Shown here one piece after another: positions 10,087 through 36,488 of a DNA stretch of 56,810 bases. Where the stretch lies: assembly GCA_945888705.1 (NCBI GenBank), contig CAMDAQ010000001.1, forward strand, positions 1 through 56,810, given 5' to 3'. Made by a program: the position numbers and the translations under genes. The DNA is from Singulisphaera sp. GP187 (lineage in GTDB: Bacteria; Planctomycetota; Phycisphaerae; Phycisphaerales; SM1A02). How positions within the stretch are numbered: the first letter of the stretch is position 1; each line of letters begins with the position of its first letter. The notes under the pieces are model-generated. The model was not told where the DNA came from. It saw only the letters and a program-made list of their open reading frames with translations, and made no database searches.

Positions 10087-10107
10087 GCCATCGACGGCCC
10101 GGACTTG

Positions 10108-10159: not shown

Positions 10160-10164
10160 GCCAA

Positions 10165-10251
10165 CGGACAGGGGGAGATTCGAACTCCCGATACGGTTAC
10201 CCGTATACAGCATTTCCAATGCTGCTCCTTCAACCGCTCGGACACCTGTCC
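10165..10251 (-). tRNA. tRNA-Ser (anticodon GGA)
   Basis: 87 nt. Acceptor GGACAGG/CCTGTCC, anticodon stem CAGCA/TGCTG with loop TTGGAAA, long variable arm TATACGGGTAACCGTATC, T arm GGGAG-TTCGAAT-CTCCC, discriminator G. Confidence 0.9.
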
Positions 10252-10275
10252 AAGGTGGGCCACTAGAGTAGCGGC

Positions 10276-10974: not shown

Positions 10975-10981
10975 GCGCCGT

Positions 10982-22041: not shown

Positions 22042-22380
22042 TCACTGCGGGCAGGCGCCCCAGGCGCTGAGCAGGTAGCCAAGGTCCTTGCCGTCGGTGC
22101 TGCCGTCGCCGGTGATGTCGCCGCCAGAGGCCCCCCACGAGGAGAGCATCAGTCCAAGGTCGCCGCCGTCGACCGAGCCGCTGCCATCGAGGTCAGCCGG
22201 GCACGGCGGGGCGCCGGAGCCGGAGCCCGATCCCATCAGTCGGTGGCCACTGGAAAAGTCGTCGTTCTTGGGGGCCTGCAGGCCGCTGTCGCCTCGGTCG
22301 CGCGGTGCCGGCAGGGCGGCCGGGATCAGGGCGGCAAGTCCGACGGAGCAGACAACGATGGTGGCAATGGCATGGGTCAT
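22042..22380 (-). CDS. Small secreted protein consisting essentially of a linker plus one double dockerin-like module
   Basis: Start at MTHAIATIVVCSVGLAALIPAALPA (signal peptide). It has a GSGSGSG linker, then CPADLDGSGSVDGGDLGLMLSSWG and GDITGDGSTDGKDLGYLLSAWGACPQ. No catalytic or binding domain is attached. Confidence 0.7.
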   Translation of the reverse strand: MTHAIATIVVCSVGLAALIPAALPAPRDRGDSGLQAPKNDDFSSGHRLMGSGSGSGAPPCPADLDGSGSVDGGDLGLMLSSWGASGGDITGDGSTDGKDLGYLLSAWGACPQ

Positions 22381-22446: not shown

Positions 22447-22815
22447 TCATACCGGATCGATACGTTGGGTGTTTCCGGGCCGCTGGTCCCGGTCCGCGTC
22501 GTCGAGGGCCATCCGGCGGACCAGCACGGTCATGTCGCGTCGGACCGCGCGCAGGCGCATGTACATGCTCAGGAATCCCCATGACGTGGCCAAGACCAGC
22601 AGGTAGAGCACGAGGTCGGTGCCTCGGCCGATGCCCAGAAGCCGCGCGACGCCGGTCGCCCAATCTGGCTCGATCACGAAGACCGCGCCCAGGGAACACC
22701 CGGCCACCAGGATCGCCGCAATGCCTCTGGGCAGGCTGCCCCTGCGTCCCAGCACCACGCTCGCAGCGACGGTGGTTGCGATGGCCACCAACAGCGCGAT
22801 CTGGAAGACATTCAT
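22447..22815 (-). CDS. DUF2304-type small membrane protein
   Basis: 122 aa with hydrophobic segments. LLGIGRGTDLVLYLLVLATSWGFL...LVRRMAL matches my recollection of DUF2304, a family that typically follows a GT2 gene. ATGA overlap with the GT2 stop. Confidence 0.75.
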   Translation of the reverse strand: MNVFQIALLVAIATTVAASVVLGRRGSLPRGIAAILVAGCSLGAVFVIEPDWATGVARLLGIGRGTDLVLYLLVLATSWGFLSMYMRLRAVRRDMTVLVRRMALDDADRDQRPGNTQRIDPV

Positions 22816-23582
22816 CGGAAAACCCTCCCCACGGCATAGTGGACCAGGATGCGTGCACTGGCCGCCGCCCGCTGCCCCTTGGCGAGCGAGTATTCGGTGT
22901 AGTCGATCGTGGTGGGGAATTGTCCCACGCGCATGCCCGAGCGCGCGATCAGGTCGATGAGCTCGCTCGCGTGCGCCATGCGATCGGATCGGAGCTCGCA
23001 GCGGCGAGCGGCCTCGGCGCTCAGCACGCGGAGTCCGTTGTGGACGTCGTTCAGTGCGATGCCGCTGGTCAGTCGATGCATGAACGCGGCCAGCCGGATG
23101 AGGGCCGCCCGGACCGCTGGAATGCGAGTGCCACCGCCGAACCGATCACCAAGGGCGATGTCGCATTCGCCACGGGCCACGGCGCAGGCCATGCGCACCA
23201 GATCCGCCACCCGGTGCTGGCCGTCAGCGTCGAAGTGCGCGATCCGGTGTGCACCCTTGGCGAGCGCAAAGTCAGTCCCGGTCTGCAGTGCGGCGCCCTG
23301 GCCCCGATTCACGGCGTGTCGCAGCGCATGCGTCGCGTGCGCCTGCAGCACTCCCCAGGATCCGTCCGACGAGCCGTCATCCACTGCAACGACGTTGGGA
23401 AACGTGCGGCCGAGCTCGCGGAGCACCGATTCCACGGCAGTGCATTCGTTGAAGACCGGAACCACGACCCACGTCCCCGCAAGGATCTGCTCGTCAGTGA
23501 GGTCGTGCAACGCGGTCAGGGACTCCACGGGTCGAAGGTACCATCGGCCATGACGGTCGCAAGGAACCACCGAGCATGACAT
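22812..23582 (-). CDS. GT2 glycosyltransferase, polyprenyl-phosphate sugar synthase-like (GtrB/Dpm1-type)
   Basis: VVVPVFNECTAVESVL...VVAVDDGSSDGS...NRGQGAALQTG...HFDADGQH. The start is uncertain. The ATG at 23582 overlaps the divergent ATG at 23576 (ATGACAT), so an internal GTG (for example 23528) may be the real start. Confidence 0.85.
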   Translation of the reverse strand: MSCSVVPCDRHGRWYLRPVESLTALHDLTDEQILAGTWVVVPVFNECTAVESVLRELGRTFPNVVAVDDGSSDGSWGVLQAHATHALRHAVNRGQGAALQTGTDFALAKGAHRIAHFDADGQHRVADLVRMACAVARGECDIALGDRFGGGTRIPAVRAALIRLAAFMHRLTSGIALNDVHNGLRVLSAEAARRCELRSDRMAHASELIDLIARSGMRVGQFPTTIDYTEYSLAKGQRAAASARILVHYAVGRVFR

Positions 23583-25345
23583 CGACTCCGCTGGCCATGA
23601 CCGCTCGGCCCGTCATGCTCTCGGCCTCCGTGCTCTGGCTCTTGGTGATCCTCGTGTGGCGCCCAGTGGTGAACGCGCCGTTCGTCCACGATGACCTTGT
23701 GCAGATCGTCGACCGGGAGCAGCAGGTCGATGCCCCGTGGCGGAGTTGGTCGGCCCTTTCGGCGGGCCAGCGGCCGCTCGTGCAACTCACGCTTGGGGTG
23801 AACCATCAGCTTGGCGGCTTGGATCCGCGGGGATATCACGCGCTGAACATCGCGCTTCACGGCGTGGCAGCCGCACTGTGTCTGATCGTCCTCTGGACGG
23901 CTGCGTGCAAGCTCGTGGAGCGTGGCTCGCTGGCCGCGCAACCGACGTGGATCCTTGGCGCGTGCATGGCTGCGGCAGCGTTGTGGGCGCTTCACCCGAT
24001 CCAGACGGCCTCGGTGAGTTATGTGATCCAACGAGCGGAGCTGCTCGTGGGCGGAGGCGCGCTCCTGGCAGCGTGGGGCCTCCTGCGCGCCTGCTGTGCG
24101 GGAGCCTCGATGCGGTGGCAGGCGCTCGCCGTTGGTGGATGCGTCGCAGCGATCCTCTCCAAGCCATCCGCGGTCACCGTGCCCGCCCTGCTGCTTGCCG
24201 TGGACGCGGCGATCTGCACTGGATCGTTGGCAGCGAGCCTTCGCGAGCGGTGGATGATGCACGCGGCTTGCTGGGCTTCGCTGCTTCTGCTGTTGCCGCT
24301 TGGCGTGGTGGGTTCGCTGATCGGCGATGGCGGTATCGCTCCTTCCGCCGGGTTCAGCGTCCCGGGCGTGGATCCGATGACGTATGCGTGGGCCGAACTC
24401 GGGGCCTTGGGGATCTATGCAGGCGAACTGATCCTGCCACCGCTGATGAGCATCGATCATGGGTGGACCGTCATCGAGACTGCACCTTGGCCGAGGATCG
24501 TCGGTGCGTTGGCGGTGCTGTCCATGCTGGCGACGCTCGTCGTTGGCCTTGCACGGCGAGCATGGTGGTGGATCCTCGGTGCGCTGCCCATGCTCATGCT
24601 GCTCCCGACGTCGAGCATCGTCCCGCTGCGAGATCCGGTCGCGGACCACAGGCTCTACCTCGCGCTGCTCGGTCCGGTGCTAGCGTTCGTCGCGCTCGTC
24701 GCGGTACCGACATCCCGGGCTGGAAGCGGGTGGAGGCGCCTGGGGAGCCTCGTGGTCATTGCCGCGATCGTGACGGCTGCCGTCACCACCATCAACCGCA
24801 ACGAGGCGTGGTGCTCGCCGAGTCGACTGTGGGACCCGGTCATCGTGATGCGTCCCGACGATGCCACCGCCCTGATGAATCGGTCACTGAGCCGTCTTGC
24901 TGCGGGCGACGACGATGGTGCGCGTCTCGATGCGGCGGCAGCGTTCGATGCGCGTCCCTCCGATGGCTCGGCTGCCGCGATGCTCGGGTTGCTCGAGGTG
25001 CGCGCCGGGCATCCAGAGAAGGCGCTTGACTGGTTGCTCCGAGCTGAGTCGCTCGGCACCAAGACAGCAAGCGTTCGTGGCGCCAAGGGCGATGCGCTCC
25101 GGGCGCTCGGTCGCCATGCTGAGGCTGCCGAGGCGTATGAGAGAGCTTCGCGACGATCACCATCGTCTGAACGACTGGCGTTGCTCCATGGCCTTTCGCT
25201 TGCGGAGAGCGGCAACATGGAGGCGGCATCGGTGGTGCTCCAGCGCCTCGCCGCCGAAGCGAGCGATCCGGCGGTGATGGAGCGTGCGCGCGAATGCCTG
25301 GGTGCACTCCCGGGCGGTGCCGGCAGCGGAGCCGCGGAACCATGA
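23576..25345 (+). CDS. Polytopic GT-C-like glycosyltransferase with C-terminal TPR repeats (TMTC/PMT-like architecture)
   Basis: Many hydrophobic segments. The acidic loop motif PFVHDDLVQI follows the first TM segment. The C-terminal soluble part, about 170 aa, has TPR-like repeats (AAAMLGLLEVRAGHPEKALDWLLRAE..., GDALRALGRHAEAAEAYERA...). Confidence 0.7.
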   Translation: MTSTPLAMTARPVMLSASVLWLLVILVWRPVVNAPFVHDDLVQIVDREQQVDAPWRSWSALSAGQRPLVQLTLGVNHQLGGLDPRGYHALNIALHGVAAALCLIVLWTAACKLVERGSLAAQPTWILGACMAAAALWALHPIQTASVSYVIQRAELLVGGGALLAAWGLLRACCAGASMRWQALAVGGCVAAILSKPSAVTVPALLLAVDAAICTGSLAASLRERWMMHAACWASLLLLLPLGVVGSLIGDGGIAPSAGFSVPGVDPMTYAWAELGALGIYAGELILPPLMSIDHGWTVIETAPWPRIVGALAVLSMLATLVVGLARRAWWWILGALPMLMLLPTSSIVPLRDPVADHRLYLALLGPVLAFVALVAVPTSRAGSGWRRLGSLVVIAAIVTAAVTTINRNEAWCSPSRLWDPVIVMRPDDATALMNRSLSRLAAGDDDGARLDAAAAFDARPSDGSAAAMLGLLEVRAGHPEKALDWLLRAESLGTKTASVRGAKGDALRALGRHAEAAEAYERASRRSPSSERLALLHGLSLAESGNMEAASVVLQRLAAEASDPAVMERARECLGALPGGAGSGAAEP

Positions 25346-26340
25346 TCGCGCGCGACCACGACGTGACCATGGTCATTCCTGCGCGCGATGCTGCACGCAC
25401 GATCGGAGAGTGCCTCGACGCTGCGCTCGCCGTCCGAGCTCGGGCCGCATCACGACTCGCTCGCATCGTGCTCGTCGATGACGGATCGCGCGATGGCACA
25501 GCAGTCGAGGCTGAGCGACGTGGGATCGACGTGGTGCGCGGGAGGGGGCAGGGACCCGCTGCGGCACGCAACCTCGGCTGGCGGCAGGCGACCACGGACC
25601 TCGTGTGGTTCGTCGATGCGGATTGCGTCGCTGCGCCGGATGCGCTCGAGCGGCTGCTGCCGGCGCTGGAAGACGATGGTGTCGCCGGCGTTGGCGGGAC
25701 CTACGGGATCGCGCCGGGTGCGTCGCTCCTGGAGCGTCTGATCCATGAGGAGATCATGGTGCGCCATGCACGCATGCCTGAAGAAGTTGACTTTCTCGCG
25801 ACCTTCGATGTGCTCTACCGGCGCAGCGTGCTGGATCGGCTTGGCGGCTTCGACGAGCGATACCTCAAGGCGCAGGACGCGGAGTTCGCGTTCCGGGTGA
25901 TCGAGTCGGGCCGGCGCCTGCGGTTCGAACGTGCATCGGTCGTGCAGCACTTTCACGCCGATCGACTCGCGAGGTACCTGCGGGTGCAATGTGGGCAAGG
26001 GCGTTGGCGCGTGGCCCTGCACCTGGAACACCGTGGACGCGGCACGCGCAATTCCTACAGCTCGGCGCTCGATCATCTGCAGCCATTCATCCCGCTGACG
26101 CTCCCGGTCGCTGCCGCAGCACCATGGTGGGGTGCACCGTGGTGGAGCGTTGCGGTACCAGTGGCGCTCCTCGCGCTCCTGCAGGTGCCGATGGCCGCCG
26201 CGATGGTCGCCCGGGCCGGTCCGTCGATGGTGGCCTTCGTGCCGCTCGGCGTTGCACGCAGCGTCGCGCGGTGTGTCGGGCTGTGCCAAGGTCTTGCCGA
26301 TCGCCTCCGAGGTCGTCGCCTGCCCGGAGGATTTCGATGA
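25342..26340 (+). CDS. GT2 glycosyltransferase with C-terminal membrane segments
   Basis: ATGA overlap with the upstream stop. VTMVIPARDAARTIGECL...VLVDDGSRDGT...ARNLGW...VWFVDADC. The C-terminus has the hydrophobic stretch PWWGAPWWSVAVPVALLALLQVPMAAAMV. Confidence 0.85.
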   Translation: MIARDHDVTMVIPARDAARTIGECLDAALAVRARAASRLARIVLVDDGSRDGTAVEAERRGIDVVRGRGQGPAAARNLGWRQATTDLVWFVDADCVAAPDALERLLPALEDDGVAGVGGTYGIAPGASLLERLIHEEIMVRHARMPEEVDFLATFDVLYRRSVLDRLGGFDERYLKAQDAEFAFRVIESGRRLRFERASVVQHFHADRLARYLRVQCGQGRWRVALHLEHRGRGTRNSYSSALDHLQPFIPLTLPVAAAAPWWGAPWWSVAVPVALLALLQVPMAAAMVARAGPSMVAFVPLGVARSVARCVGLCQGLADRLRGRRLPGGFR

Positions 26341-28874
26341 GTCTGCTTCCGATGCTGTGTTGGCTGCTGCTTGCACTGCCTGGTGTGGCGCTCGTGCGGC
26401 GTCGAGTGCCGGCGGCGTGGGGTGGCGGCCCTGTGGCGTGGCTCGGCATCGGTTGGATGGCGTCGCTCATCGCGCTTGCACCCGTTGTCGTGGCGGGATA
26501 TCTGCTGCGGCTGCCGACGGGTGTGGTGGCGGTGGTTGCCGCCGGGTTCGTGGGGTGGGGAGCGATCGAACTCGTCCGGCAGCGCGCGTGGCGCGATCTT
26601 CGCGGCAGCGTCACGGTCGTCGCCATCCTCGGGGCGTGCGTCGTCATCGTCGATGCGGTGCTTGCGGAACGCATCGGGGCGATCCTCGACAATGATGCAC
26701 GCGTCCACGTCGCGAGGATCCGCTTCCTCCTCGACCAGGGCTTCTCCAACGTGGATCCGTTCGTGCGGACTCCCGGCCAGTATCCCTATCCGCTCTACCA
26801 CACCAACATCCTGCATGCCGTGCACGCGATCGTGGCCTGGCTGACGGGGCTCGACCCACTTGATGTCTGGTTTGGCTCACTTGGAGCGTCACGCCTGATG
26901 ATCGCCGGTGCCGCCGCGTGGACCGCGTGGGTCATCGTTGGTGGCCGCTGGGCACCATGGATCGCAGCGGTGCTCGTGGTGCTGTCACGCGTCGACTGCG
27001 ACTACACGCTCTATCCCAATCAGCTTGCGCCGTGGTTCGCCTTTCCGATCGCGGTGGGTGGCGTTGCACTCGTGCTGGCGCGGGACGGCCGTGCCTGGCA
27101 CGCCGCGCTTGCGTGCGCGGTTCTGACGCTGGTCGTGGCCATGGTGCACCCGCTCTATGCCGGCTTTGTGCTGGTGATGCTCCTGCCTGTGCTCGGATGC
27201 TCGATGCTGTGGCGCTGGCTGCGTGGCATCGGGAAGCCAGCCACACCATGGGCATGTGCTGCCGGTCTGGTGATCGCCTCGGTCCCTATGTTGGTGGCCG
27301 TGAAGGCCATGACTGCCAATCCGGGACGCGCCGGTGATGTTGCGCCTGCATCGGCCTGGGAGCGAACGCAATGGAAACTCGATGGGACCGCAGGCAGCGA
27401 GTCGCAGGCCGGCAGCGGCGCGCCCGATGCCCTCGGCCGCGCCCGCACGACGGCGATGCACCGTCAAGACGGCTTCACGATGAGCGAGTCCGGCGGCCGC
27501 CGGTTCATCGCGAGGGATTGGGGTCGAGGCTTCACGGGCGGTTTCGGCGGCGTGCGTGCGTGGCGCCTCTGGTCCGCGATCGCCGCGGCGATCCTGGCGC
27601 TCTCCGTGCTCGGCAGGCCGCAGGCAGCCGTGGCGATGGGGTCGATCCTTGTCGTCGTGGGCGTCATGTCGGTTCCGACGCTGTGCACTGCGGCAATTGG
27701 GTTCCTCGGCGCGCAGTGGATGGTGCTGAGATTCGAGGCACTCGCCACGATCCTGTGGTGCATGCTTGCATTCCCGGCCATCGCAGCAAGCCTCGAGCGG
27801 TCGACCCGTACCCGTCGGGCATGGTCGCTCATGGGGGGGCTGGGCACGATGCTGCTCGCCGCATGGGTCGGGGTTGCGAATGCCGGTCGTGACGCACCCG
27901 TGCGGATGGAGCAGTGGTGGCATCGCGCGATGGCCTCGGCAAGTACTCGATGCGGCGCTGCGCTCGATGGTCTGGTTGAGAACCGTGAGTGGATGGAGCA
28001 GGCAATTCCCGATGGGGCCGTGGTCGCCTGCGGTCGGCTGACCGGGACATGGGTCGCCATGCTTCGCGGTCCGGCGCTCGTGTGCAGCGAGCGAAGTTCA
28101 ACCGGAGTCCCTGCCGGAGCAACGCGCACCCGTCACGTGATCGAGATGCTCGACGACCGGACCGACGACGCTCGTCGAGCGGCGCTGTTCAGGCACTACC
28201 GAGTCAGTCACGTGCTGCTCGCCGGTCGAGCGCCCGCCTGGACCGAGTATTGGACCGCCGAGCTCGACACAGGCGAGGGCCATCAAGTGATCGAGCTTCT
28301 GGATGCCCCCGATCCGCGCAAGGTGTGGGAGCGCGAGGTGTCGGATGCCGCGCGCGAGGTGCTTCACGGCTGCGCCGACCACGCGGAGCCGGCGCTCGAG
28401 GCACTCGTCGACGAGCGGCCGCAGTCGTGGCGAGGATGGAACGCGCTGGGCAACGCGCAGTGGGAGCTCGGCCGCGTTCAGGCGGCGGAGCGGTCCTATC
28501 TCGAGGCCCGGCGGTGCGATCCCAGTGAGCCGATGCCGGAACTGATGCTGGGCAACTGCGCTGAATCGCTCGGCCGCCCTTCCGAGGCAGTCACGCGATT
28601 TGAGTCTGCGGAGGCGATCGCCATCGCTGCCGGAGATCCCGGCGTCGCGGCGTCGGCGAGCTTCAACCGAGCCAACGTGCTGCGGCGGCAGGGTCGCCTG
28701 CAGGATGCCGAGTTCGCGTATCGGCGCGCCGTGCTGCTGGATCCGACGCATGCCGGGGCGCAGGAAGAACTGAAGCGGGCCGGACGCTGGAACGCCCCCG
28801 CAGCAGGGCCGGCTGACGAGGGCGACGAAGGCCAGCCAGCTGGCGAGCATGGCACGAGAGGACTCGAGCCGTGA
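26337..28874 (+). CDS. 845-aa polytopic membrane protein with C-terminal TPR repeats (possible GT-C transferase or polymerase)
   Basis: ATGA overlap at 26337-26340. Numerous hydrophobic segments. An acidic ILDNDARVH loop occurs early. The C-terminal TPR-like region is WRGWNALGNAQWELGRVQAAERSYLEARRCDP...FNRANVLRRQGRLQDAEFAYRRAVLLDP. I cannot name a family. Confidence 0.6.
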   Translation: MSLLPMLCWLLLALPGVALVRRRVPAAWGGGPVAWLGIGWMASLIALAPVVVAGYLLRLPTGVVAVVAAGFVGWGAIELVRQRAWRDLRGSVTVVAILGACVVIVDAVLAERIGAILDNDARVHVARIRFLLDQGFSNVDPFVRTPGQYPYPLYHTNILHAVHAIVAWLTGLDPLDVWFGSLGASRLMIAGAAAWTAWVIVGGRWAPWIAAVLVVLSRVDCDYTLYPNQLAPWFAFPIAVGGVALVLARDGRAWHAALACAVLTLVVAMVHPLYAGFVLVMLLPVLGCSMLWRWLRGIGKPATPWACAAGLVIASVPMLVAVKAMTANPGRAGDVAPASAWERTQWKLDGTAGSESQAGSGAPDALGRARTTAMHRQDGFTMSESGGRRFIARDWGRGFTGGFGGVRAWRLWSAIAAAILALSVLGRPQAAVAMGSILVVVGVMSVPTLCTAAIGFLGAQWMVLRFEALATILWCMLAFPAIAASLERSTRTRRAWSLMGGLGTMLLAAWVGVANAGRDAPVRMEQWWHRAMASASTRCGAALDGLVENREWMEQAIPDGAVVACGRLTGTWVAMLRGPALVCSERSSTGVPAGATRTRHVIEMLDDRTDDARRAALFRHYRVSHVLLAGRAPAWTEYWTAELDTGEGHQVIELLDAPDPRKVWEREVSDAAREVLHGCADHAEPALEALVDERPQSWRGWNALGNAQWELGRVQAAERSYLEARRCDPSEPMPELMLGNCAESLGRPSEAVTRFESAEAIAIAAGDPGVAASASFNRANVLRRQGRLQDAEFAYRRAVLLDPTHAGAQEELKRAGRWNAPAAGPADEGDEGQPAGEHGTRGLEP

Positions 28875-29830
28875 ACGAGCATGAGCCCGATGTCTCGATC
28901 GTGATCGTGAGCTACAACACGGTCGACCTCTTGCGGGAGTGCCTGCGATCGATTCCACGATCGGTCGAGCCCTTCACGCACGAGACGATCGTCGTCGACA
29001 ACCTGTCGCGCGATGGGAGCGCCGACATGGTCGAGCGTGAGTTCCCCGGCGTTCGGCTCGTGCGGGCGGAGCGCAACCTAGGCTTTGCCGGCGGGAACAA
29101 CGCGGCATTCAGGATCGCCCGGGGGCGCCTCGTCTACTGCCTCAACCCCGACACCGTGAGCCATCCCGGGTCGCTTGCGACGCTCGTGAGGCTCCTCGAC
29201 GGCGATTCGACGCTCGGGTACGTCGGTCCGAAGCTGCTGAACGCCGATGGGACCCACCAGCTCAGTGCGTATCGCTTCCATACGCCGCTCTCGGGATTCG
29301 TCAGCTGGTCGATGTTGGGGCTCGATCGCCGATACCCGCGTTCGCGTCATTGCCTCACGCTTCACCACCTCCATGGATGCGACACGCCCTTCGAGGTCGA
29401 CTGGCTGACGGGTGCGGCCATCCTGACGCGCCGTTCGATCATCGATCGAGTCGGAGGCTACGACGAGCGCTACTTCCTGTACGCCGAGGAGATCGAGTGG
29501 TGCTGGCGCATGCACCGTGCCGGCTGGCGGGGGTGGTATGAGCCGGGCGCGGTCGTCACGCACGTCCGCGCGGCGAGCACATCGCACCTCGATGACTCGC
29601 ATGCATTCCATGGACATGATCCGTCGCTGCTCATCGAGAGCCATCGCCGCCTGGCGGTGCAGACGCTTGGGCTGCCGGCGGCCGTCGCGTCGCAAGCGCT
29701 GCACCTGGCAGGAGTCACCCTGGCATGGTTGCGCAACGTGCCACCCATGCCACGACGCAGCCCGGGCACGCGGCGCAGGGCCTGGCTGTGGATGCGCTAC
29801 CTCGTCCGACCGACGCCGCGGAGGCGTTGA
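28871..29830 (+). CDS. GT2 glycosyltransferase (rhamnosyltransferase-like subgroup)
   Basis: GTG start overlapping the upstream TGA. VSIVIVSYNTVDLLRECL...VVDNLSRDGS...NLGFAGGNN...LNPDT...YFLYAEEIEWCWR. Confidence 0.85.
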   Translation: MNEHEPDVSIVIVSYNTVDLLRECLRSIPRSVEPFTHETIVVDNLSRDGSADMVEREFPGVRLVRAERNLGFAGGNNAAFRIARGRLVYCLNPDTVSHPGSLATLVRLLDGDSTLGYVGPKLLNADGTHQLSAYRFHTPLSGFVSWSMLGLDRRYPRSRHCLTLHHLHGCDTPFEVDWLTGAAILTRRSIIDRVGGYDERYFLYAEEIEWCWRMHRAGWRGWYEPGAVVTHVRAASTSHLDDSHAFHGHDPSLLIESHRRLAVQTLGLPAAVASQALHLAGVTLAWLRNVPPMPRRSPGTRRRAWLWMRYLVRPTPRRR

Positions 29831-29836
29831 CCACGC

Positions 29837-30481
29837 ATGCCGATCTCACACGCCCATCGCTGCATCTTCATCCACGTGCCAAAGTGCGGCGGAACGAGCA
29901 TTGAGGCTGCCCTTGGCGTGCTCGGTGACTGGCGCCACGAGGACCGCGAGCGGATGTTCGGCCGCATGACGTCGAGCGATCTTCTGGCCATGCGATGCCG
30001 CTCCCGATTCCTGCAGCACCTGACGTGGGATGAACTGCGACGGGTCGTTCCCGAGCGTGAGCGTCGTGGGTACCGCTCGTTCGCGATGGTGCGCCACCCC
30101 TTGACGCGCCTGGAATCCGCGTGGTCCCGGCCCGACCACGACCTTGTCGAGGAGGCTCGCTGGCAGGGCATTCGGCTCGATGGCGTGGGGTTCGCGCGGT
30201 TCGTCGAAGGCGCGCTACGGCTGGATCATCCGCACGTCCGGCCGCAGGTGGAGTACATCGTCGATGCCGCCGGCCGGATCTCGGTCGATGCGCTCGGTCG
30301 CTACGAGCGCTTCGGGGACGACGCTCGCTCGTTGCTGTCGTCGGTCGGCGTTCACCGGAGCCTCGAGCATCGCAACCCGCCGCTCCGGGCGCGCCACGGA
30401 ATCGAGTGGCCAGCCGAGCTGCGCGCGCGTGCCATCGAGCGATATGGCGATGACTTCAGGATCCTGGGGTACGAGCCATGA
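29837..30481 (+). CDS. Sulfotransferase (Sulfotransfer_2-like, carbohydrate sulfotransferase type)
   Basis: The 5'-PSB-like motif is IFIHVPKCGGTS. The 3'-PB-like motif is FAMVRHPLTRLESAW. The size of about 214 aa is typical. Confidence 0.8.
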   Translation: MPISHAHRCIFIHVPKCGGTSIEAALGVLGDWRHEDRERMFGRMTSSDLLAMRCRSRFLQHLTWDELRRVVPERERRGYRSFAMVRHPLTRLESAWSRPDHDLVEEARWQGIRLDGVGFARFVEGALRLDHPHVRPQVEYIVDAAGRISVDALGRYERFGDDARSLLSSVGVHRSLEHRNPPLRARHGIEWPAELRARAIERYGDDFRILGYEP

Positions 30482-31323
30482 TCCTCGTGATGACGCTGCT
30501 CGTGCGCGACGAGGACGACATCCTCGAGGCGAACCTCGCGTTTCACCGAAGCCGGGGCGTGGATCACTTCATCGTGACCGACAACCTGTCGACCGATCGC
30601 ACGCCGGCGATCCTCGCGCGATGGCGCGACAGGGGGCTCGTGACGATCATCGAGGAACGGCAGGACGACTACGCGCAGCACGCATGGGTCACGCGCATGG
30701 CGCGGACGGCGGCTTCGGACTACGGTGCCGACTGGGTGATCAACAACGACGCTGACGAATTCTGGTGGCCCGCCTGCGGCTCGCTCAAGGAAGCACTTGC
30801 ATCGCTGCCGGCCTCCGCCCACGCGGCGGTGGTCGAGCGCACGAACCTCCCCGCGCTCGATGGTGCCGGTCCATTCTGGGAACGCCTCGTCTGGCGTGAT
30901 ACACAATCACGTAACCCGACCGGCGGTCCGCTTGGTCCGAAGGTGGCGCACCGCGGTGATCGCTCCATCGAGGTCGAGCAGGGCAACCACTTCGTGCGTC
31001 AACGCGGTCTCCGGTTGGTACCGGTTCCGGCCCCGATCGAGATCCTGCATGTGCCGTGTCGATCGTGGCCCCAGTTCGAGCGCAAAATCCGACTCGGTGG
31101 CGCGGCGTACGCACGCAACACCAACCTCAAGCCCTCGATCGGCAAGACGTGGCGGGACCTTCACCAGCGGCTGCTCGAAGGGTCGCTGCGTCGTGAGTAC
31201 GACCGGCAGAATCCCGCGGGCACGGAGCATGCCGCGCAGGTCGCCTCTGGCCGCCTCGTTCGTGACGAGCGGCTCCGCGGAGCATTGGGTGAACTCATGC
31301 ACGACGAGGCAGGCGCAGCGTGA
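30478..31323 (+). CDS. Glycosyltransferase family 2-like protein (Glyco_tranf_2_4 type)
   Basis: ATGA overlap. ILVMTLLVRDEDDILEANLAFHRSRGVDHFIVTDNLSTDRT...WVINNDADEFW. This N-terminal pattern is typical of the stand-alone GT2_4/GT92-like group. Confidence 0.6.
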   Translation: MILVMTLLVRDEDDILEANLAFHRSRGVDHFIVTDNLSTDRTPAILARWRDRGLVTIIEERQDDYAQHAWVTRMARTAASDYGADWVINNDADEFWWPACGSLKEALASLPASAHAAVVERTNLPALDGAGPFWERLVWRDTQSRNPTGGPLGPKVAHRGDRSIEVEQGNHFVRQRGLRLVPVPAPIEILHVPCRSWPQFERKIRLGGAAYARNTNLKPSIGKTWRDLHQRLLEGSLRREYDRQNPAGTEHAAQVASGRLVRDERLRGALGELMHDEAGAA

Positions 31324-33041
31324 ACGAAGCCATCGGCCGTGCATGGGCGCTCCTGGGGCCGCGAGACCGTCGCGTGGCCGTGATGCTCTGTGCAGCGATG
31401 CTCGTGTCGGCGGCGCTTGAGTGCGTCGGGCTGGGCCTCGTGTTCCCAGTGCTCGCGCTTCTGTCGGACGATGCATCGATGCTGCGTCATGCGCCCGACA
31501 TCGTGGCGCAGTCCATCGGCTCGATGCCCCGCCCCCGGCTCATCGTGCTGTGCATGGGCGGCCTCGTCGCCATCTATGTCACGAAGGCCATCTTCCGCTG
31601 GACCCTGGTGCGGCAGGTCAATCGGTTCGGCTTCGCGCTGCAGCGCGAACTCTCCACCCGTTTGTTCGGGCGATTCATCTCGCGGCCGTGGGCTTTTCAT
31701 CTCGCTCGGAACACAACCGGTCTGCTGCACGGCGTGACCCATGATGTCGACCAGGTGGCCTTCGGCGTGATCGTTCCGGCACTGTCAGCGGCCAGCGAAC
31801 TGCTGGTGATCGTGGGGGTGACCGCACTGCTGCTGGCCATCGAGCCGGTTGGTGGATTGGCGTGCCTTGGGCTGATCGGTGCTGCGGGCTGGTGGTTCCA
31901 CCGCAACACCGAGGCCCGGGCTGCGGCGCTCGGTCAGCGAAGGCGCGAACTCGACCGCTCACGATTCCGGCTGATTCGCCAAGCGTTGGAAGGCGTCAAG
32001 GAGATCCAGGCGCTCGGCCGCGAGCGCGGTTTCACCGACCTGGTGGATGACGCCTCGTGCCGAAGCGGTGCGATGGGCGCCCAGGTGCAGTCACTGAAGG
32101 ACATGCCGCGGAGCTGGATCGAGGTCCTTGCGGTGCTCGGGTTGGCGACCCTCGTCAGCTCGATGGAGTTGCGTGGTCGCGACCCCGCCTCGGTGCTGGG
32201 GATCGCGGGGCTCTTCGCGATCGCGGTCTTCCGCCTCGTGCCAAGCGGCACGCGGCTCATGTCGAGCGTGCAGCTGATGGTGCTTGCGGCTCCGAGCCTT
32301 CGCGCCGTAGCCAGCGAACTGGCGCAGTCGACCGCTGCACCCACAGGTTCGGTAGGTGATGAGGACTGGACCGCGATCGATGTCGAGGGGGTGTCCTTCC
32401 GCTACGCGGATGATCGTCCGGCCGTGTTCGGGGGTCTCGATGCGCGTGTCGGTCGCGGCGAATCGGTGGGGGTGATCGGAGCGAGCGGCTCGGGAAAGTC
32501 CACGGTCGTGGACCTCGTCCTTGGGCTGCTGCGGCCCTCCGCCGGACGGATCATGATCGGTCGCGTCGATCTGGCCGACTGCACCCGCTGGTGGCAAGCG
32601 CAGGTCGGCTACGTGCCTCAGGCGATCTACCTGATGGATGACTCCATCCGCCGCAACGTCGCCTTCGGCCTTCCCGAGCGTGACATCGACGAGGCGGCCG
32701 TCGTCCGCGCCCTGCGCCTGGCGCGACTCGATGACTTCGTGGCGTCGCTGCCCGACGGCCTGTCCACCGTCGTGGGCGAACGTGGCGTCCGTTTGAGCGG
32801 GGGACAGCGACAGCGCATCGGGATTGCGCGGGCGCTCTACGCACGGCCGACGGTGCTCATCCTCGACGAGGCGACGAGTGCACTCGATCCCGCGACCGAG
32901 GCGGAGCTGCTCCAGGCCATTCACGCGCTGCAGGGCACCGTCACGATGATCGTGGTTGCCCATCGTGAAGCAACCGTCGCGCGGTGCGACCGTGTGCTGC
33001 GCCTCGATGCCGACGGGCTCGCGGAGGCCGGACGTGCCTGA
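31320..33041 (+). CDS. ABC exporter, fused TMD-NBD (MsbA/PglK-type)
   Basis: GTG start overlapping TGA. N-terminal six-helix-type TMD. The NBD has Walker A GASGSGKST, signature LSGGQRQRIGIARAL and Walker B VLILDEATSALD. Confidence 0.9.
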   Translation: MNEAIGRAWALLGPRDRRVAVMLCAAMLVSAALECVGLGLVFPVLALLSDDASMLRHAPDIVAQSIGSMPRPRLIVLCMGGLVAIYVTKAIFRWTLVRQVNRFGFALQRELSTRLFGRFISRPWAFHLARNTTGLLHGVTHDVDQVAFGVIVPALSAASELLVIVGVTALLLAIEPVGGLACLGLIGAAGWWFHRNTEARAAALGQRRRELDRSRFRLIRQALEGVKEIQALGRERGFTDLVDDASCRSGAMGAQVQSLKDMPRSWIEVLAVLGLATLVSSMELRGRDPASVLGIAGLFAIAVFRLVPSGTRLMSSVQLMVLAAPSLRAVASELAQSTAAPTGSVGDEDWTAIDVEGVSFRYADDRPAVFGGLDARVGRGESVGVIGASGSGKSTVVDLVLGLLRPSAGRIMIGRVDLADCTRWWQAQVGYVPQAIYLMDDSIRRNVAFGLPERDIDEAAVVRALRLARLDDFVASLPDGLSTVVGERGVRLSGGQRQRIGIARALYARPTVLILDEATSALDPATEAELLQAIHALQGTVTMIVVAHREATVARCDRVLRLDADGLAEAGRA

Positions 33042-33885
33042 CGCAGCGCTCTCGCGCACGGCCGACTGCGGGATCGTGACGCTCGCCGATGCGCGCTACG
33101 CCCCCGGCGTCGACATGCTGTGCCGGTCCGTCCGCGAAAGCCTCGATCTGCCGGTCGCCTGCTTCGACCTCGGTCTGGGTGCGGCGGTGATCCAGCGGCT
33201 CTGCACGAACCACCCTTCGTTGCGCGTGCTGCCGATGCCAGAGAGCGCCGATCTCTTGGCCGTGCGGCGCGTGTTCGAGTCAGCGGGTCCTCTTGCGAAG
33301 CCCGGCAAGCGCGTCTGGCCGATCTGGGCTTGTCCGTTCCTGATCGCGGCCAGCCCATTCGCGCGGACCTTTTGGATCGATGCCGACATCGTCGTGCTGC
33401 GGCACCTTGCAGGGCTGGTCTCGTTGCTCGACGTTGGACCGGTGCTCACGCCGGAGAACTTCGCACCAGCCGTCACGCCCAACAAGCCAGAGCTCTATCG
33501 GCTGCTGCCCATCGCGCGCCGGTTCGATCCGCTCGAGCCACGGTTGAACGCGGGCATCTCCGGCTGGGATCATGCGCGCGCCGAGGATCGTGCACTGCTC
33601 GACGCCTATTGCCATGCCGTGCGCTCGGCGTGCGCCGATCCTCGGATCGCGAACGCCATCTCCTGGTGGGACCAGGGATCCCTGATCTGGGCGGTGCAGT
33701 CGTGCGGGCTCGAGCATCGGGTAGTGCGGACGAACGCATGGAACCTCTGCATCCGCAACACGCGCGCCAAGGACATCGACGTCGGCTGGGATGATGGCAC
33801 GCTCGCTCGTCTGCGGGACCTCGTCCCCGAGGGCAACCTCCTCCACTGGAACGGGACTGCGCCACCGTGGGGCGTGGTGGCATGA
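33034..33885 (+). CDS. Nucleotide-diphospho-sugar transferase, GT8-like
   Basis: CGIVTLADARYAPGVDMLCRSV... and the DxD-like FWIDADIVVL. The start is uncertain: GTG 33034 overlaps the ABC gene end, and an ATG lies at 33007. Confidence 0.6.
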   Translation: MPDAALSRTADCGIVTLADARYAPGVDMLCRSVRESLDLPVACFDLGLGAAVIQRLCTNHPSLRVLPMPESADLLAVRRVFESAGPLAKPGKRVWPIWACPFLIAASPFARTFWIDADIVVLRHLAGLVSLLDVGPVLTPENFAPAVTPNKPELYRLLPIARRFDPLEPRLNAGISGWDHARAEDRALLDAYCHAVRSACADPRIANAISWWDQGSLIWAVQSCGLEHRVVRTNAWNLCIRNTRAKDIDVGWDDGTLARLRDLVPEGNLLHWNGTAPPWGVVA

Positions 33886-34637
33886 GGTCGTTGGCGTCGT
33901 TGCTGCGGTCGCTCGTCCGTAGCGCAGGAGCGCCGCCTCGTGCGCCCTCACGGCGTGACGGGCTCGACAGCGAGGCGGCCTTCTGGGATGGCTGGCTCGC
34001 GCGACGGGAGCATGCCGGATTCGCGTTCCGGACGGACCCAACCAGCCAACTGCAGCCATGGCTCTGGTGCCACCTCGACTCGACCAGGCCGATCCACCGA
34101 GTGCTCGATGTCGGATCGGGGCCACTCTCGGTGGTCGGACGTGTCGCGCCGGCCGGTCGTCTCGACCTGACCTGTTGCGATCCCCTCGCATCGGTGTACC
34201 ACGCGCTGCTCGCCAAGCACGGCATCACGCCGGTCCACACGATCGATGACGTCGCCGGTGAAGCGCTGGCGCAGCGCTACGGCAACGCATGCTTCGATCT
34301 CGCTCTCTCCAACAATGCCGTTGACCATGGGGCAGCGCCGATCGACGTGCTCCGACAGATGGCGCTTGTCGTCCGCGTTGGAGGTACCGTGCTCGTGCAG
34401 GTGGGTGAGCGCGAGGGCCAGCACGGCGGGTACGTAGGGCTGCACCAGTGGGATTTCTGGGAGGATCGCGGGCGCCTCTGGCTGGCCGCCCGTGCCGGCG
34501 ATCCCGCAGACGTGACGCACGCGCTTGAGCCGTGGCTGGAGCAGCGCTCGATCGAGCGCGTCGACACGAATCCGGCGGGTGTGCGGTGGGATCGACCGCA
34601 CCTGCGCATCGTGTGGCGGCGTCGCGACGCGCACTAG
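33882..34637 (+). CDS. Class I SAM-dependent methyltransferase
   Basis: ATGA overlap at 33882-33885. Motif I is VLDVGSGP. The post-I acidic residue is in LTCCDP, and motif-II-like FDLALSNNAVDH is present. Confidence 0.75.
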   Translation: MRSLASLLRSLVRSAGAPPRAPSRRDGLDSEAAFWDGWLARREHAGFAFRTDPTSQLQPWLWCHLDSTRPIHRVLDVGSGPLSVVGRVAPAGRLDLTCCDPLASVYHALLAKHGITPVHTIDDVAGEALAQRYGNACFDLALSNNAVDHGAAPIDVLRQMALVVRVGGTVLVQVGEREGQHGGYVGLHQWDFWEDRGRLWLAARAGDPADVTHALEPWLEQRSIERVDTNPAGVRWDRPHLRIVWRRRDAH

Positions 34638-35590
34638 TCCTGCGCCGCGACGGGCCGCCCGGCGGTCGAAGGAACCCACGCGCCTTCGAGCAAGCCGATG
34701 CCCCACGCACGCTGCATGCGGGCGCGGACCGCATGCTCCGTGCGTCGTGCAGCGACGTGCCGCGCCGAGCCGATCACGATCCACGCCATGCCTTTCACCG
34801 AGCAGAGCGCCAACGCCGAGACGCGCCCCCGCAGATCACGTTCGATGGGTGCGACGCAGCGTCCAACGCTTCGTTGGCGCCGCACGAGCCACGCCTCGGT
34901 CGCCCGTGAGGGAGGGATCGACTCCACGACCCGCGCCTCGTCGACCCATCGGATGGGCACGCCGCGGTGCGCCAGCCGCTGGAAGAAGTGGCGGTCCTCC
35001 CCGGCGCGCAGGAACCCGGTCGCGAATCGAGGTCCCGCATCGTCCACCAGCGCGGCATCGAAGAGCACGTTGTTGGTGAACGCCCACGGCCTGCGCTCTC
35101 CGGTCGAGTGCACGGCTGCCGCGAAGAACCCCCCATCTATCACCCATGGTGCAGGAGGCTCGACGAACGACGGATCGACTGGGCCAGTCACGATGCCCGG
35201 TCCGAATCGATCGCGCGCGGCGAGCAGTGCCGCCAGCCAGCCGAGTCCAGCGGTTTCGTCGTCATCGATGAACGCGATCAGTCCCGTAGATCCAACAGCC
35301 TGCCGCGCCAGCCCGAGGGCTCGATTGCGAGGGAATGCCACGCCCCGTTGCGGCTCGGTCTCGAGGATCACGTCGATCCCGGTGTCGCGACGCACGCGCG
35401 CGACGACCTCGGCAGGTGCGGGATCGGCAGGATCGTTGCTCACGACGATGGCGACCAGACTGACCCCCGCCGGCAATGTCGAGCGCTGCTCTGCGAGGCT
35501 GCGCAGCGTGGCCTCGAGTCCAGCTGCGCGGTGGAGCGTCGACACGCAGCAGGCGATCGATCGCGCGTCAGGTGCCATGGTGGGTTGCAT
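34634..35590 (-). CDS. GT2 glycosyltransferase (tandem paralogue A)
   Basis: IACCVSTLHRAAGLEATLRSL...IVVSNDP...FPRNRALGLAR...IAFIDDDET...TNNVLF...GEDRHFFQRLAHRGVPIRW. The start is at 35590 or 35578, both overlapping the upstream gene end. Confidence 0.85.
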   Translation of the reverse strand: MQPTMAPDARSIACCVSTLHRAAGLEATLRSLAEQRSTLPAGVSLVAIVVSNDPADPAPAEVVARVRRDTGIDVILETEPQRGVAFPRNRALGLARQAVGSTGLIAFIDDDETAGLGWLAALLAARDRFGPGIVTGPVDPSFVEPPAPWVIDGGFFAAAVHSTGERRPWAFTNNVLFDAALVDDAGPRFATGFLRAGEDRHFFQRLAHRGVPIRWVDEARVVESIPPSRATEAWLVRRQRSVGRCVAPIERDLRGRVSALALCSVKGMAWIVIGSARHVAARRTEHAVRARMQRAWGIGLLEGAWVPSTAGRPVAAQD

Positions 35591-36488
35591 ACTCCTCGAA
35601 TCGGTCAATGCCGAGCGCGCCGGCCACGAGCCCAACCGCCTTGGCCGCGTCGAGCGCCGGATGCATCGTCGCTGCGGCGACATGCCCTCGCAGCGTGCTC
35701 ATGACGGCACGGGCCACGCCGCGAGCGAGGTAGCGCAGCGCCATGCCGATGCATCCGAGTCGTGATGCTGCGTGCAGGTCGAGCATGATCCACGCGTTCG
35801 TCGCGCCGACGCGGTAGGCGCGCTGCAGGGCCCACCGGCGCGTCATCCGAGATCGCGGATAGTGCTCGAACGTGATCGCCCGGGCACACCAACGGATGCG
35901 ATGGCCATCGCGCGCAAGCCTTCGGAAGAGGTGCGTGTCGCTGCCGCCGGTCTTGAGTAGGCGGTCGTCGAACCGGCACGCCGGATCCGCGACCACGCCA
36001 TGACGCAGCGCCACGTTGTTGGTGTAGGCCTCCTGCAACCGGGTCCCGTCGGGATGATCGGGCTGTTCGTAGCACCGGGTCTGGAGCGCCCACGCGGGGA
36101 CGGGATCCGGCAGCACGGGTCGCGCAGGGCCTGTCAGGATGTCGGCTTCACCACGGGAGGCGGCGTGTGCCAAGGCGCTGAGCCATGAGGGATCGACGGT
36201 CTCGTCATCGTCGACGAACGCGATCCAGTCCGGGTGCGGTTCGAGCCTTCGAGCTTCGTCCAGCGCGCGGTTGCGGGCGAAGGGAATGCCCGCCCGCGTT
36301 TCGAGCACGTGGGTGCACGGCCATCGGCTTGCCGGCATGGGCGAACGGCTGTCGTCGTTCTCGACCACGATGATGGAGAGTGCGTGGGGAGCGGCTCCGT
36401 CGGTCGCGACCAGGCGGTCGAGCGATGCGAAGAGCCGCGCGAGCCCGTCAGGCCTGCGTTTCGTGATGACAGCGACAGCGAATCGCAT
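35568..36488 (-). CDS. GT2 glycosyltransferase (tandem paralogue B)
   Basis: MRFAVAVITKRRPDGLARLFASL...IVVENDD...FARNRALDEAR...IAFVDDDET...TNNVAL...GSDTHLFRRLARDGHRIRW. Colinear with paralogue A. Confidence 0.85.
   Translation of the reverse strand: MRFAVAVITKRRPDGLARLFASLDRLVATDGAAPHALSIIVVENDDSRSPMPASRWPCTHVLETRAGIPFARNRALDEARRLEPHPDWIAFVDDDETVDPSWLSALAHAASRGEADILTGPARPVLPDPVPAWALQTRCYEQPDHPDGTRLQEAYTNNVALRHGVVADPACRFDDRLLKTGGSDTHLFRRLARDGHRIRWCARAITFEHYPRSRMTRRWALQRAYRVGATNAWIMLDLHAASRLGCIGMALRYLARGVARAVMSTLRGHVAAATMHPALDAAKAVGLVAGALGIDRFEEYATHHGT

Follow-up and report, generated by a model that had tools for sequence, protein, structure and literature searches.

A planctomycete cell-envelope glycoconjugate locus in which a conserved core is joined to a swapped-in module with a putative flippase

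Nine plus-strand genes of the planctomycete Singulisphaera sp. GP187 (GenBank assembly GCA_945888705.1, contig CAMDAQ010000001.1) span positions 23576-34637 of an analyzed stretch of 56,810 nucleotides, here called the window; start and stop overlap at seven of their junctions, and the eighth has a gap of 6 nt. Their products are two polytopic membrane proteins with tetratricopeptide repeats (TPR1 and TPR2), several glycosyltransferases (GTs), a sulfotransferase, a half-size ATP-binding cassette (ABC) exporter and a methyltransferase. The operon is composite: genes one to three are part of a widely conserved core, and genes four to nine form a swapped-in module with a putative flippase of its own. 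An earlier note on this DNA had read the nine genes as one translationally coupled unit of unusual composition. The coupled unit is confirmed here, and what seemed unusual is a conserved core combined with a swapped cassette, each component of which has a known counterpart.

Gene order and coupling

An independent gene caller applied to identical public contigs (offset 21319), which include the NCBI metagenome-assembled genome (MAG) GCA_965102025.1 and more than 20 metagenome contigs, returned exactly the genes and overlaps of the earlier reading. Read directly in the sequence, the junctions are ATGA at 25342, 26337, 30478 and 33882, GTGA at 28871 and 31320, and an 8-nt overlap, GTGCCTGA, at 33034, the single gap covering 29831-29836. 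The order of the nine genes is kept in four independent loci (L009 and L015-L017) at 63-98% protein identity, so that they constitute a real conserved unit and not a chance run. This operon is the plus-strand half of a cell-envelope glycoconjugate locus of about 21 kb (18.6-39.8 kb of the window), flanked by genes for PA14 surface proteins. Profile matches in Pfam agree with most of the enzyme functions proposed before, the protein encoded at 33034-33885 having no match of its own. On the minus strand, the four rml genes (18607-21978) form a dTDP-L-rhamnose synthesis set. They had been described as lying immediately upstream of the operon; in fact three minus-strand genes intervene, which encode a 112-aa protein, a DUF2304 membrane protein and a family 2 glycosyltransferase (GT2) similar to PpgS.

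At the end of the operon, the stop of the methyltransferase gene and that of a convergent GT2 gene share 4 nt (34634-34637), which leaves no room for a terminator hairpin between them. At its start, the PpgS-like GT2 gene and the TPR1 gene are divergent, with a spacer of 47 bp (23529-23575), and their promoters must therefore overlap or sit inside coding sequence. A consensus scan of 21.9-39.9 kb, uninformative for a planctomycete, returned no promoter-like sites and two terminator-like sites, fewer than shuffles predict.

A conserved core and an exchanged cassette

The neighborhoods of distant TPR2 homologs were examined together with a tblastn survey of 61 GTDB species-representative loci, of which the 45 with a match to TPR1 or TPR2 are the basis of the counts given here. 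Named homologs are Planctomycetota, mostly MAGs of the Phycisphaerae/Phycisphaerales, and none from a cultured organism came up; the window, too, belongs to an uncultured member of the Phycisphaerae. The conserved core consists of the DUF2304 protein and the PpgS-like GT2 on one strand and of TPR1, a membrane-anchored GT2 (GT2a) and TPR2 on the other, followed by two convergent GT2s, a further GT2 and a GT4; the flanks often carry a 405-aa protein and PA14/Laminin_G proteins. TPR1 was found in 34/45 loci and TPR2 in 35/45, with GT2a between them in 34/45; the PpgS-like GT2, next to DUF2304 and TPR1, was present in 29/45, and each of the convergent GT2s in 25/45. Conservation is highest for the set of PpgS-like GT2, DUF2304, TPR1 and TPR2, which in L010 stands by itself beside PA14 genes.

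The rest of the locus varies by modules. Wzx occurs in 12/45 loci and a PglK-like ABC exporter in 3/45, and none of the 45 has both. Sulfotransferases of the Sulfotransfer_1/3 families are found in 16 loci and of the Sulfotransfer_2 family in 5, some sulfotransferase family being present in 21/45. In Wzx-type loci (order as in L007, L008 and L025), Wzx and one or two Sulfotransfer_1/3 genes lie between the further GT2 and the GT4, two genes that in the window overlap by 4 nt (37670-37673). The window instead carries a cassette (28871-34637) composed of GT2b, the Sulfotransfer_2 enzyme, a Glyco_tranf_2_4 enzyme (GT2_4), the ABC exporter, a GT8-like enzyme and the methyltransferase. It occupies the interval from TPR2 to the convergent GT2, which is empty in Wzx-type loci. 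The cassette and the rml genes replace the Wzx and Sulfotransfer_1/3 module of relatives. Related loci contain rml genes only where Sulfotransfer_2, GT2b and GT2_4 genes also occur, and this co-occurrence bears out the link to rhamnose that had been proposed. In three loci (L010, L018 and L032) the PpgS-like GT2, DUF2304, TPR1 and TPR2 genes stand directly beside those of the 405-aa and PA14 proteins, and the rml, GT2b, Sulfotransfer_2 and GT2_4 genes are found further along. The position of GT2b differs from locus to locus. Recent foreign origin of the cassette was considered and dropped, GC content being even (0.67-0.69) over the whole locus.

Within one bacterial class, orthologous loci use either Wzx or a PglK-type ABC transporter, and either type is accompanied by a sulfotransferase family and sugar genes of its own. 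That the two types of flippase can replace each other had so far been demonstrated by complementation alone, and these loci provide natural evidence of it. Export by PglK/Wzk, three-component glycosylation of the Gac/PpgS kind, GT-C glycosyltransferases resembling TMTC, AftA or DPY19, and cytoplasmic sulfation are all of kinds already known; what is new is their combination, the synteny of two uncharacterized GT-C/TPR families with PA14 proteins and a donor synthase, the repeated presence of a sulfotransferase and the natural exchange of Wzx for an ABC exporter.

Parts of the cassette are also encountered elsewhere. GT92-like, GT8-like, Sulfotransfer_2 and methyltransferase genes form a mini-cassette that is met again in L014 (9153-12178) and in L012 and L013 (around 9100-11800), and the GT2_4 gene accompanies the GT8-like gene in all three; the context there is unrelated, with giant WbsX/radical-SAM glycosyltransferases. 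A pair of GT8-like and GT2_4-like genes adjoins a UbiA prenyltransferase in two further genomes, one of them labelled Candidatus Elarobacter.

Table 1. Genes of the glycoconjugate locus and its flanks, in window coordinates (SAM, S-adenosylmethionine; PAPS, 3'-phosphoadenosine 5'-phosphosulfate; TMD, transmembrane domain; NBD, nucleotide-binding domain; HexNAc, N-acetylhexosamine)
Feature	Coordinates	Strand	Assignment
rmlC	18607-19161	-	Pfam dTDP_sugar_isom, 3e-65
rmlA	19161-~20030	-	Pfam NTP_transferase, 2e-71
rmlD	20039-20950	-	Pfam RmlD_sub_bind, 3e-81
rmlB	20923-21978	-	Pfam GDP_Man_Dehyd/Epimerase, 1e-77
112-aa protein	22042-22380	-	N-terminal anchor (hydrophobic residues 1-26), dockerin/EF-hand-like C-terminal module
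DUF2304 protein	22447-22815	-	Pfam 6e-17, three hydrophobic segments; GacJ/Rv3632-type partner
PpgS/GacI-like GT2	22812-23528	-	238 aa; candidate polyprenyl-phosphate (HexNAc/hexose) synthase
TPR1	23576-25345	+	589 aa; TMTC/PMT-clan-like GT-C candidate, ~11 membrane helices, C-terminal TPRs
GT2a	25342-26340	+	Membrane-anchored, Glyco_tranf_2_3/GT21-like; Glycos_transf_2 1.6e-25; C-terminal hydrophobic segment; conserved core
TPR2	26337-28874	+	845 aa; DUF6541-related GT-C-fold candidate, periplasmic alpha/beta domain, TPRs
GT2b	28871-29830	+	Soluble GT2, Glycos_transf_2 6e-21; opens variable cassette
Sulfotransferase	29837-30481	+	Sulfotransfer_2, PAPS-type, predicted cytoplasmic
GT2_4	30478-31323	+	Glyco_tranf_2_4/GT92-like glycosyltransferase, Pfam 1.5e-16
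ABC exporter	31320-33041	+	PglK-like, half-size (TMD-NBD); candidate flippase for lipid-linked glycan
GT8-like	33034-33885	+	Divergent glycosyltransferase, DxD motif 'WIDADIVV'
Methyltransferase	33882-34637	+	SAM-dependent; Methyltransf_11, 24.9 bits (cut-off 21.2); last operon gene
Convergent GT2	34634-35578	-	Core GT2, Pfam
Convergent GT2	35568-36488	-	Core GT2, Pfam
Further GT2	36555-37673	+	GT2 with C-terminal membrane helices (Pfam, NCBIfam)
GT4	37670-38899	+	WcaL-like (Pfam, NCBIfam)
STM4013/SEN3800-family protein	38913-39812	+	Hydrolase-like, cytoplasmic; follows GT4
PA14 protein	39892-41994	+	Pfam
405-aa protein	42032-43249	+	Conserved, no membrane helix
PA14/Laminin_G_3 protein	~43358-47005	+	Pfam

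Exporter, modifying enzymes and membrane glycosyltransferase candidates

The ABC exporter, a protein of 573 aa, combines ABC_membrane (residues 75-246) and ABC_tran (373-520) in one chain. Among full-length single-copy matches in the PDB, PglK/WlaB ranks first (7e-74), and the NCBIfam scores of the exporter are 273 bits for PglK (the top score; cut-off 1000), 240 for MsbA and 225 for HepA. Because the NBDs dominate full-length scores, the membrane domain (residues 1-336) was also searched alone: PglK (5c73/6hrc) was its sole match in the PDB (E=1.1e-14), aligned almost without gaps over residues 10-331 against 7-328, and no MsbA or ABCB match appeared at E<=0.01. Four arginines of the PglK cavity are regarded as likely contacts for the pyrophosphate in the lipid-linked oligosaccharide (PMC5395944); R86, R260, R302 and R309 align to K89, R264, R305 and R312, three being identical and one a conservative change. 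On its sequence, the protein is PglK-like in the part expected to handle the substrate, yet no PglK ortholog. Of the earlier label of a PglK/MsbA-type exporter, the PglK half is retained through membrane domain and cavity residues, but not the MsbA half. A pathway that depends on an ABC flippase, as had been proposed, is supported by this exporter and, indirectly, by the mutual exclusivity of the ABC exporter and Wzx in the 15 related loci that carry either.

The exporter could also be an MsbA-type transporter of lipid A, peptides or drugs that merely lies in the cluster, the glycan being exported otherwise. The closeness of the MsbA and PglK scores, both far under the family cut-offs, speaks for such a role, as do the NBD-driven top PDB matches, which are ABCB1-type transporters. 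However, the membrane domain alone matches only PglK and keeps the four cavity residues, the gene is translationally coupled on either side to glycan enzymes, and the exporter occurs only without Wzx and moves with the Sulfotransfer_2, GT and methyltransferase genes of the cassette; we give this role only a very slim chance.

The closest known parallels are PglK of Campylobacter jejuni and Wzk of Helicobacter pylori, which complement wzx mutants experimentally (PMC2841628). There, as here, a half-size TMD-NBD exporter is encoded among glycan GTs without Wzy or Wzz, and, as in H. pylori, the initiating enzyme and ligase lie outside the locus; interchangeability with Wzx was shown by experiment in those systems and appears here as a natural swap. 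Unlike the members of the PglK equivalog family, the exporter of the window falls far short of the cut-off, and neither PglB nor WaaL is encoded nearby. The glycan differs as well, sulfate, methyl groups and rhamnose being predicted for it, as does the host, a planctomycete, and the locus adds two GT-C/TPR candidates and a synthase pair for polyprenyl-phosphate sugars.

Other assembly genes were sought by Pfam scans of about 46 open reading frames (ORFs) over the whole window, and none of these ORFs matched Polysacc_synt, Wzy_C, Wzz, Bac_transf or Glycos_transf_4. By hydropathy, none of the ORFs lacking a Pfam match has more than two hydrophobic segments, and a hidden Wzy or Wzx among the unannotated ORFs was rejected on this ground. 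The two scans agree with the earlier statement that the window lacks Wzx, Wzy, Wzz and a phosphoglycosyltransferase, but a candidate polyprenyl-phosphate GT is present. Loci without an initiating enzyme and Wzy are common, as in H. pylori (PMC2841628).

The earlier note had named a classical Wzx/Wzy or Wzm/Wzt set immediately outside the window as an alternative; within the window, no Wzm/Wzt set was found. The sole ABC-2 genes (52271-53874) lie 13 kb from the GT genes, in a minus-strand set of four genes (49130-53874) for an ABC ATPase, an ABC2_membrane_2 permease, a GldG-like ABC_transp_aux protein and a DUF4340 protein; they were rejected as Wzm/Wzt, being GldF/GldG-like (ABC2_membrane_2 and ABC_transp_aux). 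The O-polysaccharides of Wzm/Wzt pathways carry terminal methyl or phosphate caps, for instance those added by WbdD in Escherichia coli O8/O9a. The present locus resembles these pathways in its predicted full cytoplasmic assembly before export, in the nearby rml genes and in a methyltransferase, here along with a sulfotransferase, as a possible source of caps at the non-reducing end. It differs from them in its exporter, which is a fused PglK-type protein, whereas theirs consists of an ABC-2 Wzm and a separate Wzt that has a carbohydrate-binding domain, and it has no WbdD-like coiled-coil terminator.

The sulfotransferase matches Sulfotransfer_2 in Pfam (3e-14, 54.2 bits, cut-off 22) over residues 3-212 against positions 5-251 of the 252 of the model. 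As a single sequence it had no match in the PDB, and a profile was required; built from 46 homologs drawn from an exhaustive search with 3225 hits, this profile aligns to the heparan sulfate 6-O-sulfotransferase HS6ST (5t03). The aligned segments are the 5'-phosphosulfate-binding motif (5'-PSB) 'HVPKCGGTS' (K16), the catalytic H61 and the 3'-phosphate-binding motif (3'-PB) 'VRHPLTRLES' (R86, S94). H13, G19, H61, R86, P88 and S94 are invariant among the 46 homologs and P15 is nearly so. The PAPS-binding residues that the earlier note had singled out are thus retained (5'-PSB Lys, catalytic His, 3'-PB Arg/Ser). Neither a signal peptide nor a membrane helix is predicted for the sulfotransferase, and the methyltransferase (motif I, 'VLDVGSGP') lacks membrane helices and any evident signal sequence, so that modification of the glycan should be cytoplasmic and precede export. 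Phycisphaerae are best known as degraders of sulfated glycans; the recurrence of a sulfotransferase in their locus predicts a sulfated envelope glycoconjugate in this group.

The GT8-like enzyme has no Pfam match itself, but 24 of its 28 homologs match Glyco_transf_8 at E<=0.1, weakly (best 1e-6), and the DxD residues D116 and D118 of 'DADIVV' are invariant among its homologs. In the PDB, glycogenin and the Skp1 galactosyltransferase were matched by its profile only marginally, at the DxD motif. The GT8-like label proposed before is reasonable but not proven.

Across the 47-bp spacer from TPR1, the genes for the PpgS-like GT2 and the DUF2304 protein adjoin with a 4-nt overlap (22812-22815). 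Against the PpgS model (polyprenyl-phospho-GalNAc synthase), the GT2 scores 197 bits (3e-58) over positions 2-218 of 226, below the equivalog cut-off of 370, and its sugar specificity is not assignable from this match. The DUF2304 proteins GacJ and Rv3632 bind and stimulate the GT2s GacI and PpgS, which make HexNAc-phosphate-polyprenol for periplasmic GT-C enzymes (bioRxiv 10.1101/180810). Given such a pair, the GT-C enzymes of the locus would likely use polyprenyl-phosphate monosaccharides rather than carry out en bloc transfer. The arrangement resembles the streptococcal Gac system of the group A carbohydrate and the mycobacterial PpgS/Rv3632/Rv3779 system, with a PpgS-like GT2 beside DUF2304 and GT-C candidates adjoining, and it is embedded in a rhamnose-containing glycan cluster as are GacI/GacJ/(GacK)/GacL in streptococci. 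Unlike those systems, the locus has two GT-C candidates, which are of different families (TMTC-like and DUF6541) from theirs and end in TPRs. It also differs from the Gac system in having no dedicated GtrA/GacK-type flippase recognizable besides the single ABC exporter or Wzx, and its acceptor may be a protein and not a polysaccharide.

Pfam gives only TPR for TPR1 and TPR2, and the two were rejected as paralogs, their membrane domains being unrelated (hhalign probability 0.3%). TPR1 has 91 homologs, which reach into Verrucomicrobia and Proteobacteria and some of which were named 'protein O-mannosyl-transferase' by the Joint Genome Institute. Among the N-terminal domains of 16 relatives, 3 match PMT_2 (9e-7) and 1 matches TMTC_DUF1736 (2.8e-7); TPR1 itself matches neither. 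The motifs of TMTC proteins, namely DD after the first helix, RP, HPxxT and the Lys of KET(Q)xxT, were described by Eisenhaber et al. (PMC7801869). In TPR1, F36-V-H-D39-D40, R66-P67, H140-P141..T144 and K196 correspond to the four TMTC motifs, as matched by eye without a scored alignment to TMTC; in alignments of 50 and 16 sequences, conservation of these residues is 90% or higher, up to invariance. An AlphaFold2 model of TPR1 has a pLDDT of 90.9; all 50 listed Foldseek matches of this model in the PDB were TPR proteins and are uninformative on the membrane domain, and the profile of the N-terminal domain had no match among PDB sequences. TPR1 is thus a candidate GT-C enzyme by its motifs and family links. 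It shares with the eukaryotic protein O-mannosyltransferases TMTC1-4 about 11 helices, C-terminal TPRs predicted to be non-cytoplasmic, the DD, RP and HPxxT motifs and the Lys of the fourth motif (PMC7801869). Unlike TMTC, its fourth motif has 'KP' instead of 'KE', it reaches no Pfam GT-C model, and its donor would probably be a HexNAc- or hexose-phosphate lipid made next door and not dolichyl-phosphate mannose. Within bacteria, TfpW of Pseudomonas aeruginosa is a GT-C/TPR pilin arabinosyltransferase.

TPR2 is represented by about 50 homolog clusters, almost all from Phycisphaerae MAGs. DUF6541 is matched by its relatives P0011 (5e-10) and P0015 (1e-4) and by several precomputed entries; TPR2 itself does not match it, even with the TPR region removed, and a literature search for DUF6541 found no papers. 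The AlphaFold2 model (43 sequences; pLDDT 88.8, pTM 0.85) has only GT-C enzymes as non-TPR matches among the 50 PDB entries listed by Foldseek (probability 1.0), including the C-mannosyltransferase DPY19 (7zlg, 7zlh and 7zli; E=2e-5, about 730 aligned columns) and the arabinosyltransferase AftA (8if8; TM 0.39/0.51); the full-length profile matched only TPR proteins among PDB sequences. D120, H124, R127, R129, D140 and Y154-H155-T156-N157 are invariant in the 43 sequences. The loop 114-181 follows the helix 94-113, the loop before which is Arg-rich and so probably cytoplasmic, and is predicted to be periplasmic by the positive-inside rule. In this model TPR2 looks like a polytopic GT-C fold with conserved acidic residues in a predicted extracytoplasmic loop. 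The polytopic core and the conserved periplasmic loop with acidic residues are like those of AftA (8if8) and DPY19 (7zlg/7zli). TPR2 differs from them in its low identity (9-12%; TM 0.35-0.51) and in its three additional N-terminal helices, periplasmic alpha/beta domain and TPRs.

The two TPR proteins might instead be scaffolds, export or chain-length proteins, or Wzy/ligase-like proteins of an ordinary O-antigen or exopolysaccharide cluster whose remainder lies elsewhere. Neither matches any Pfam catalytic domain, polysaccharide export scaffolds often have TPRs, weak NCBIfam matches to PgaA, PrsT and LapB were found, and the TM-scores of TPR2 to GT-C structures are modest. Against this stand the GT-C enzymes as the only non-TPR structural matches of TPR2, its invariant acidic and His residues in the predicted periplasmic loop, the four TMTC motifs of TPR1, and the strict synteny of both proteins with a synthase pair for polyprenyl-phosphate sugars, the supplier of donors for GT-C enzymes; such a role is very unlikely in our judgment. 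The idea that the TPR proteins are transferases is plausible through GT-C fold or motifs, but the nearby donor pair argues against the en bloc transfer that it had implied. Two uncharacterized bacterial GT-C/TPR families that adjoin a donor synthase pair and candidate protein acceptors constitute a defined set for biochemistry.

Proposed pathway and surface proteins

The best explanation, in which our confidence and our doubt are about equal, is a lipid-linked glycan pathway with a swapped flippase module and a coupled periplasmic GT-C glycosylation arm. We infer substrates, step order, acceptor and final attachment as follows. In the first arm, RmlBDAC would supply dTDP-rhamnose, a phosphoglycosyltransferase encoded elsewhere would initiate the glycan, and soluble or peripheral GT2, GT2_4, GT8-like and GT4 enzymes would use dTDP-rhamnose and further nucleotide sugars to build an oligosaccharide or short polymer on polyprenyl (di)phosphate. 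The PAPS-dependent sulfotransferase and the SAM methyltransferase would modify this glycan in the cytoplasm, and the PglK-like ABC protein, presumably as a homodimer, would flip it in its lipid-linked form to the periplasmic face, the task of Wzx in orthologous loci. In the second arm, the PpgS/GacI-like GT2 and DUF2304 would make a polyprenyl-monophosphate sugar, which TPR1 and TPR2, with catalytic loops and TPRs predicted to be periplasmic, would use on an acceptor. This acceptor could be the flipped glycan, with decoration of side chains as in GacL or Gtr systems, or the PA14/dockerin-like surface proteins, with protein glycosylation as by TMTC, TMEM260 and TfpW.

Several points weigh against this pathway. 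The phosphoglycosyltransferase, second flippase and ligase or oligosaccharyltransferase that it needs were seen neither in the window nor in five annotated related loci, the sequence available for this organism consisting of contigs of about 30-60 kb. The scores of the ABC, PpgS-like and methyltransferase proteins are all far under curated equivalog cut-offs. The membrane domain of TPR1 lacks a Pfam or PDB profile match of its own, its Foldseek list being swamped by TPR proteins, and TPR2 reaches no more than modest TM-scores (0.35-0.51) with GT-C structures. Finally, every relative comes from an uncultured MAG.

The absent enzymes would not be needed in a route with a single lipid carrier, in which the PpgS-like GT2 and DUF2304 initiate on polyprenyl-monophosphate-HexNAc, the GTs extend the chain, one flippase (ABC here, Wzx in relatives) translocates the sulfated and methylated product, and a GT-C/TPR protein transfers it en bloc to PA14-type proteins or another acceptor. 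Such a route is parsimonious in that the locus would encode each of its steps, from the initiator through the elongating GTs and modifiers to a single flippase and the GT-C transferases, and synteny of the complete set extends across Phycisphaerae. Neither a phosphoglycosyltransferase nor WaaL, PglL or PglB was found in the window or in the five annotated related loci, and both the PpgS-like GT2 and GT2a weakly match the archaeal AglJ model in NCBIfam. Among archaea, AglB of Haloferax uses dolichyl-monophosphate oligosaccharides, and the lipid-linked glycans of Halobacterium are sulfated and transiently methylated before translocation. On the other hand, we know of no bacterial precedent for this route, the conserved cavity arginines of PglK are thought to bind pyrophosphate, and the closest relatives of TPR1 and TPR2 (TMTC/PMT, DPY19 and AftA) transfer single sugars. 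Moreover, every characterized PpgS/GacI-DUF2304 pair makes a monosaccharide donor used directly by a GT-C enzyme (bioRxiv 10.1101/180810). We regard the single-carrier route as unlikely. Its fullest form, a self-contained polyprenyl-monophosphate route in which a GT-C/TPR enzyme of a new family (DUF6541 and/or the TMTC-like protein) transfers a sulfated and methylated glycan en bloc to the PA14/dockerin-like proteins, is in our view decidedly unlikely. If true, such transfer would define a new class of bacterial oligosaccharyltransferase, and the route would have its parallel in the S-layer glycoproteins of haloarchaea, with dolichol-linked glycans that are sulfated and transiently methylated.

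As to the acceptor in the two-arm pathway, genes for PA14 proteins adjoin the GT-C pair in L007, L008, L010 and 13/45 genome loci, and it is possible that these proteins are acceptors or lectins. Searches of Pfam, NCBIfam and the PDB gave no match for the 405-aa protein. In 13/45 loci its gene keeps synteny with those of TPR2 and the PA14/Laminin_G protein, and in L010 it directly follows TPR2. A duplicated dockerin/EF-hand-like end module, 'CPADL.GDG.VDG.DLG.LL..WG.C', is common to four proteins of the window, namely the PA14 protein, the PA14/Laminin_G_3 protein, a C-type-lectin protein (4807-7203) and the 112-aa protein; the PA14 proteins also hold many 'DCN.NG.PD.C' repeats. The shared end modules suggest a surface assembly of the cohesin/dockerin kind linked to the glycan locus.

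The STM4013/SEN3800-family protein that follows GT4 belongs to the alkaline-phosphatase/sulfatase superfamily (NCBIfam 5e-34, 118 bits, cut-off 250; weak Sulfatase/Phosphodiest matches), and its gene was not found in the related loci compared. Rfam and tRNA scans gave no match inside the glycan locus. Outside it, ARAGORN placed tRNA-Pro(GGG) at 9179-9254 and tRNA-Ser(GGA) at 10164-10252, both on the minus strand, of which only the first passes the Rfam gathering threshold. At the edge of the window, a minus-strand gene (55024-56688) encodes an OLD-family nuclease-like protein (DUF2813, OLD-like TOPRIM, AAA_15), possibly a defence gene.

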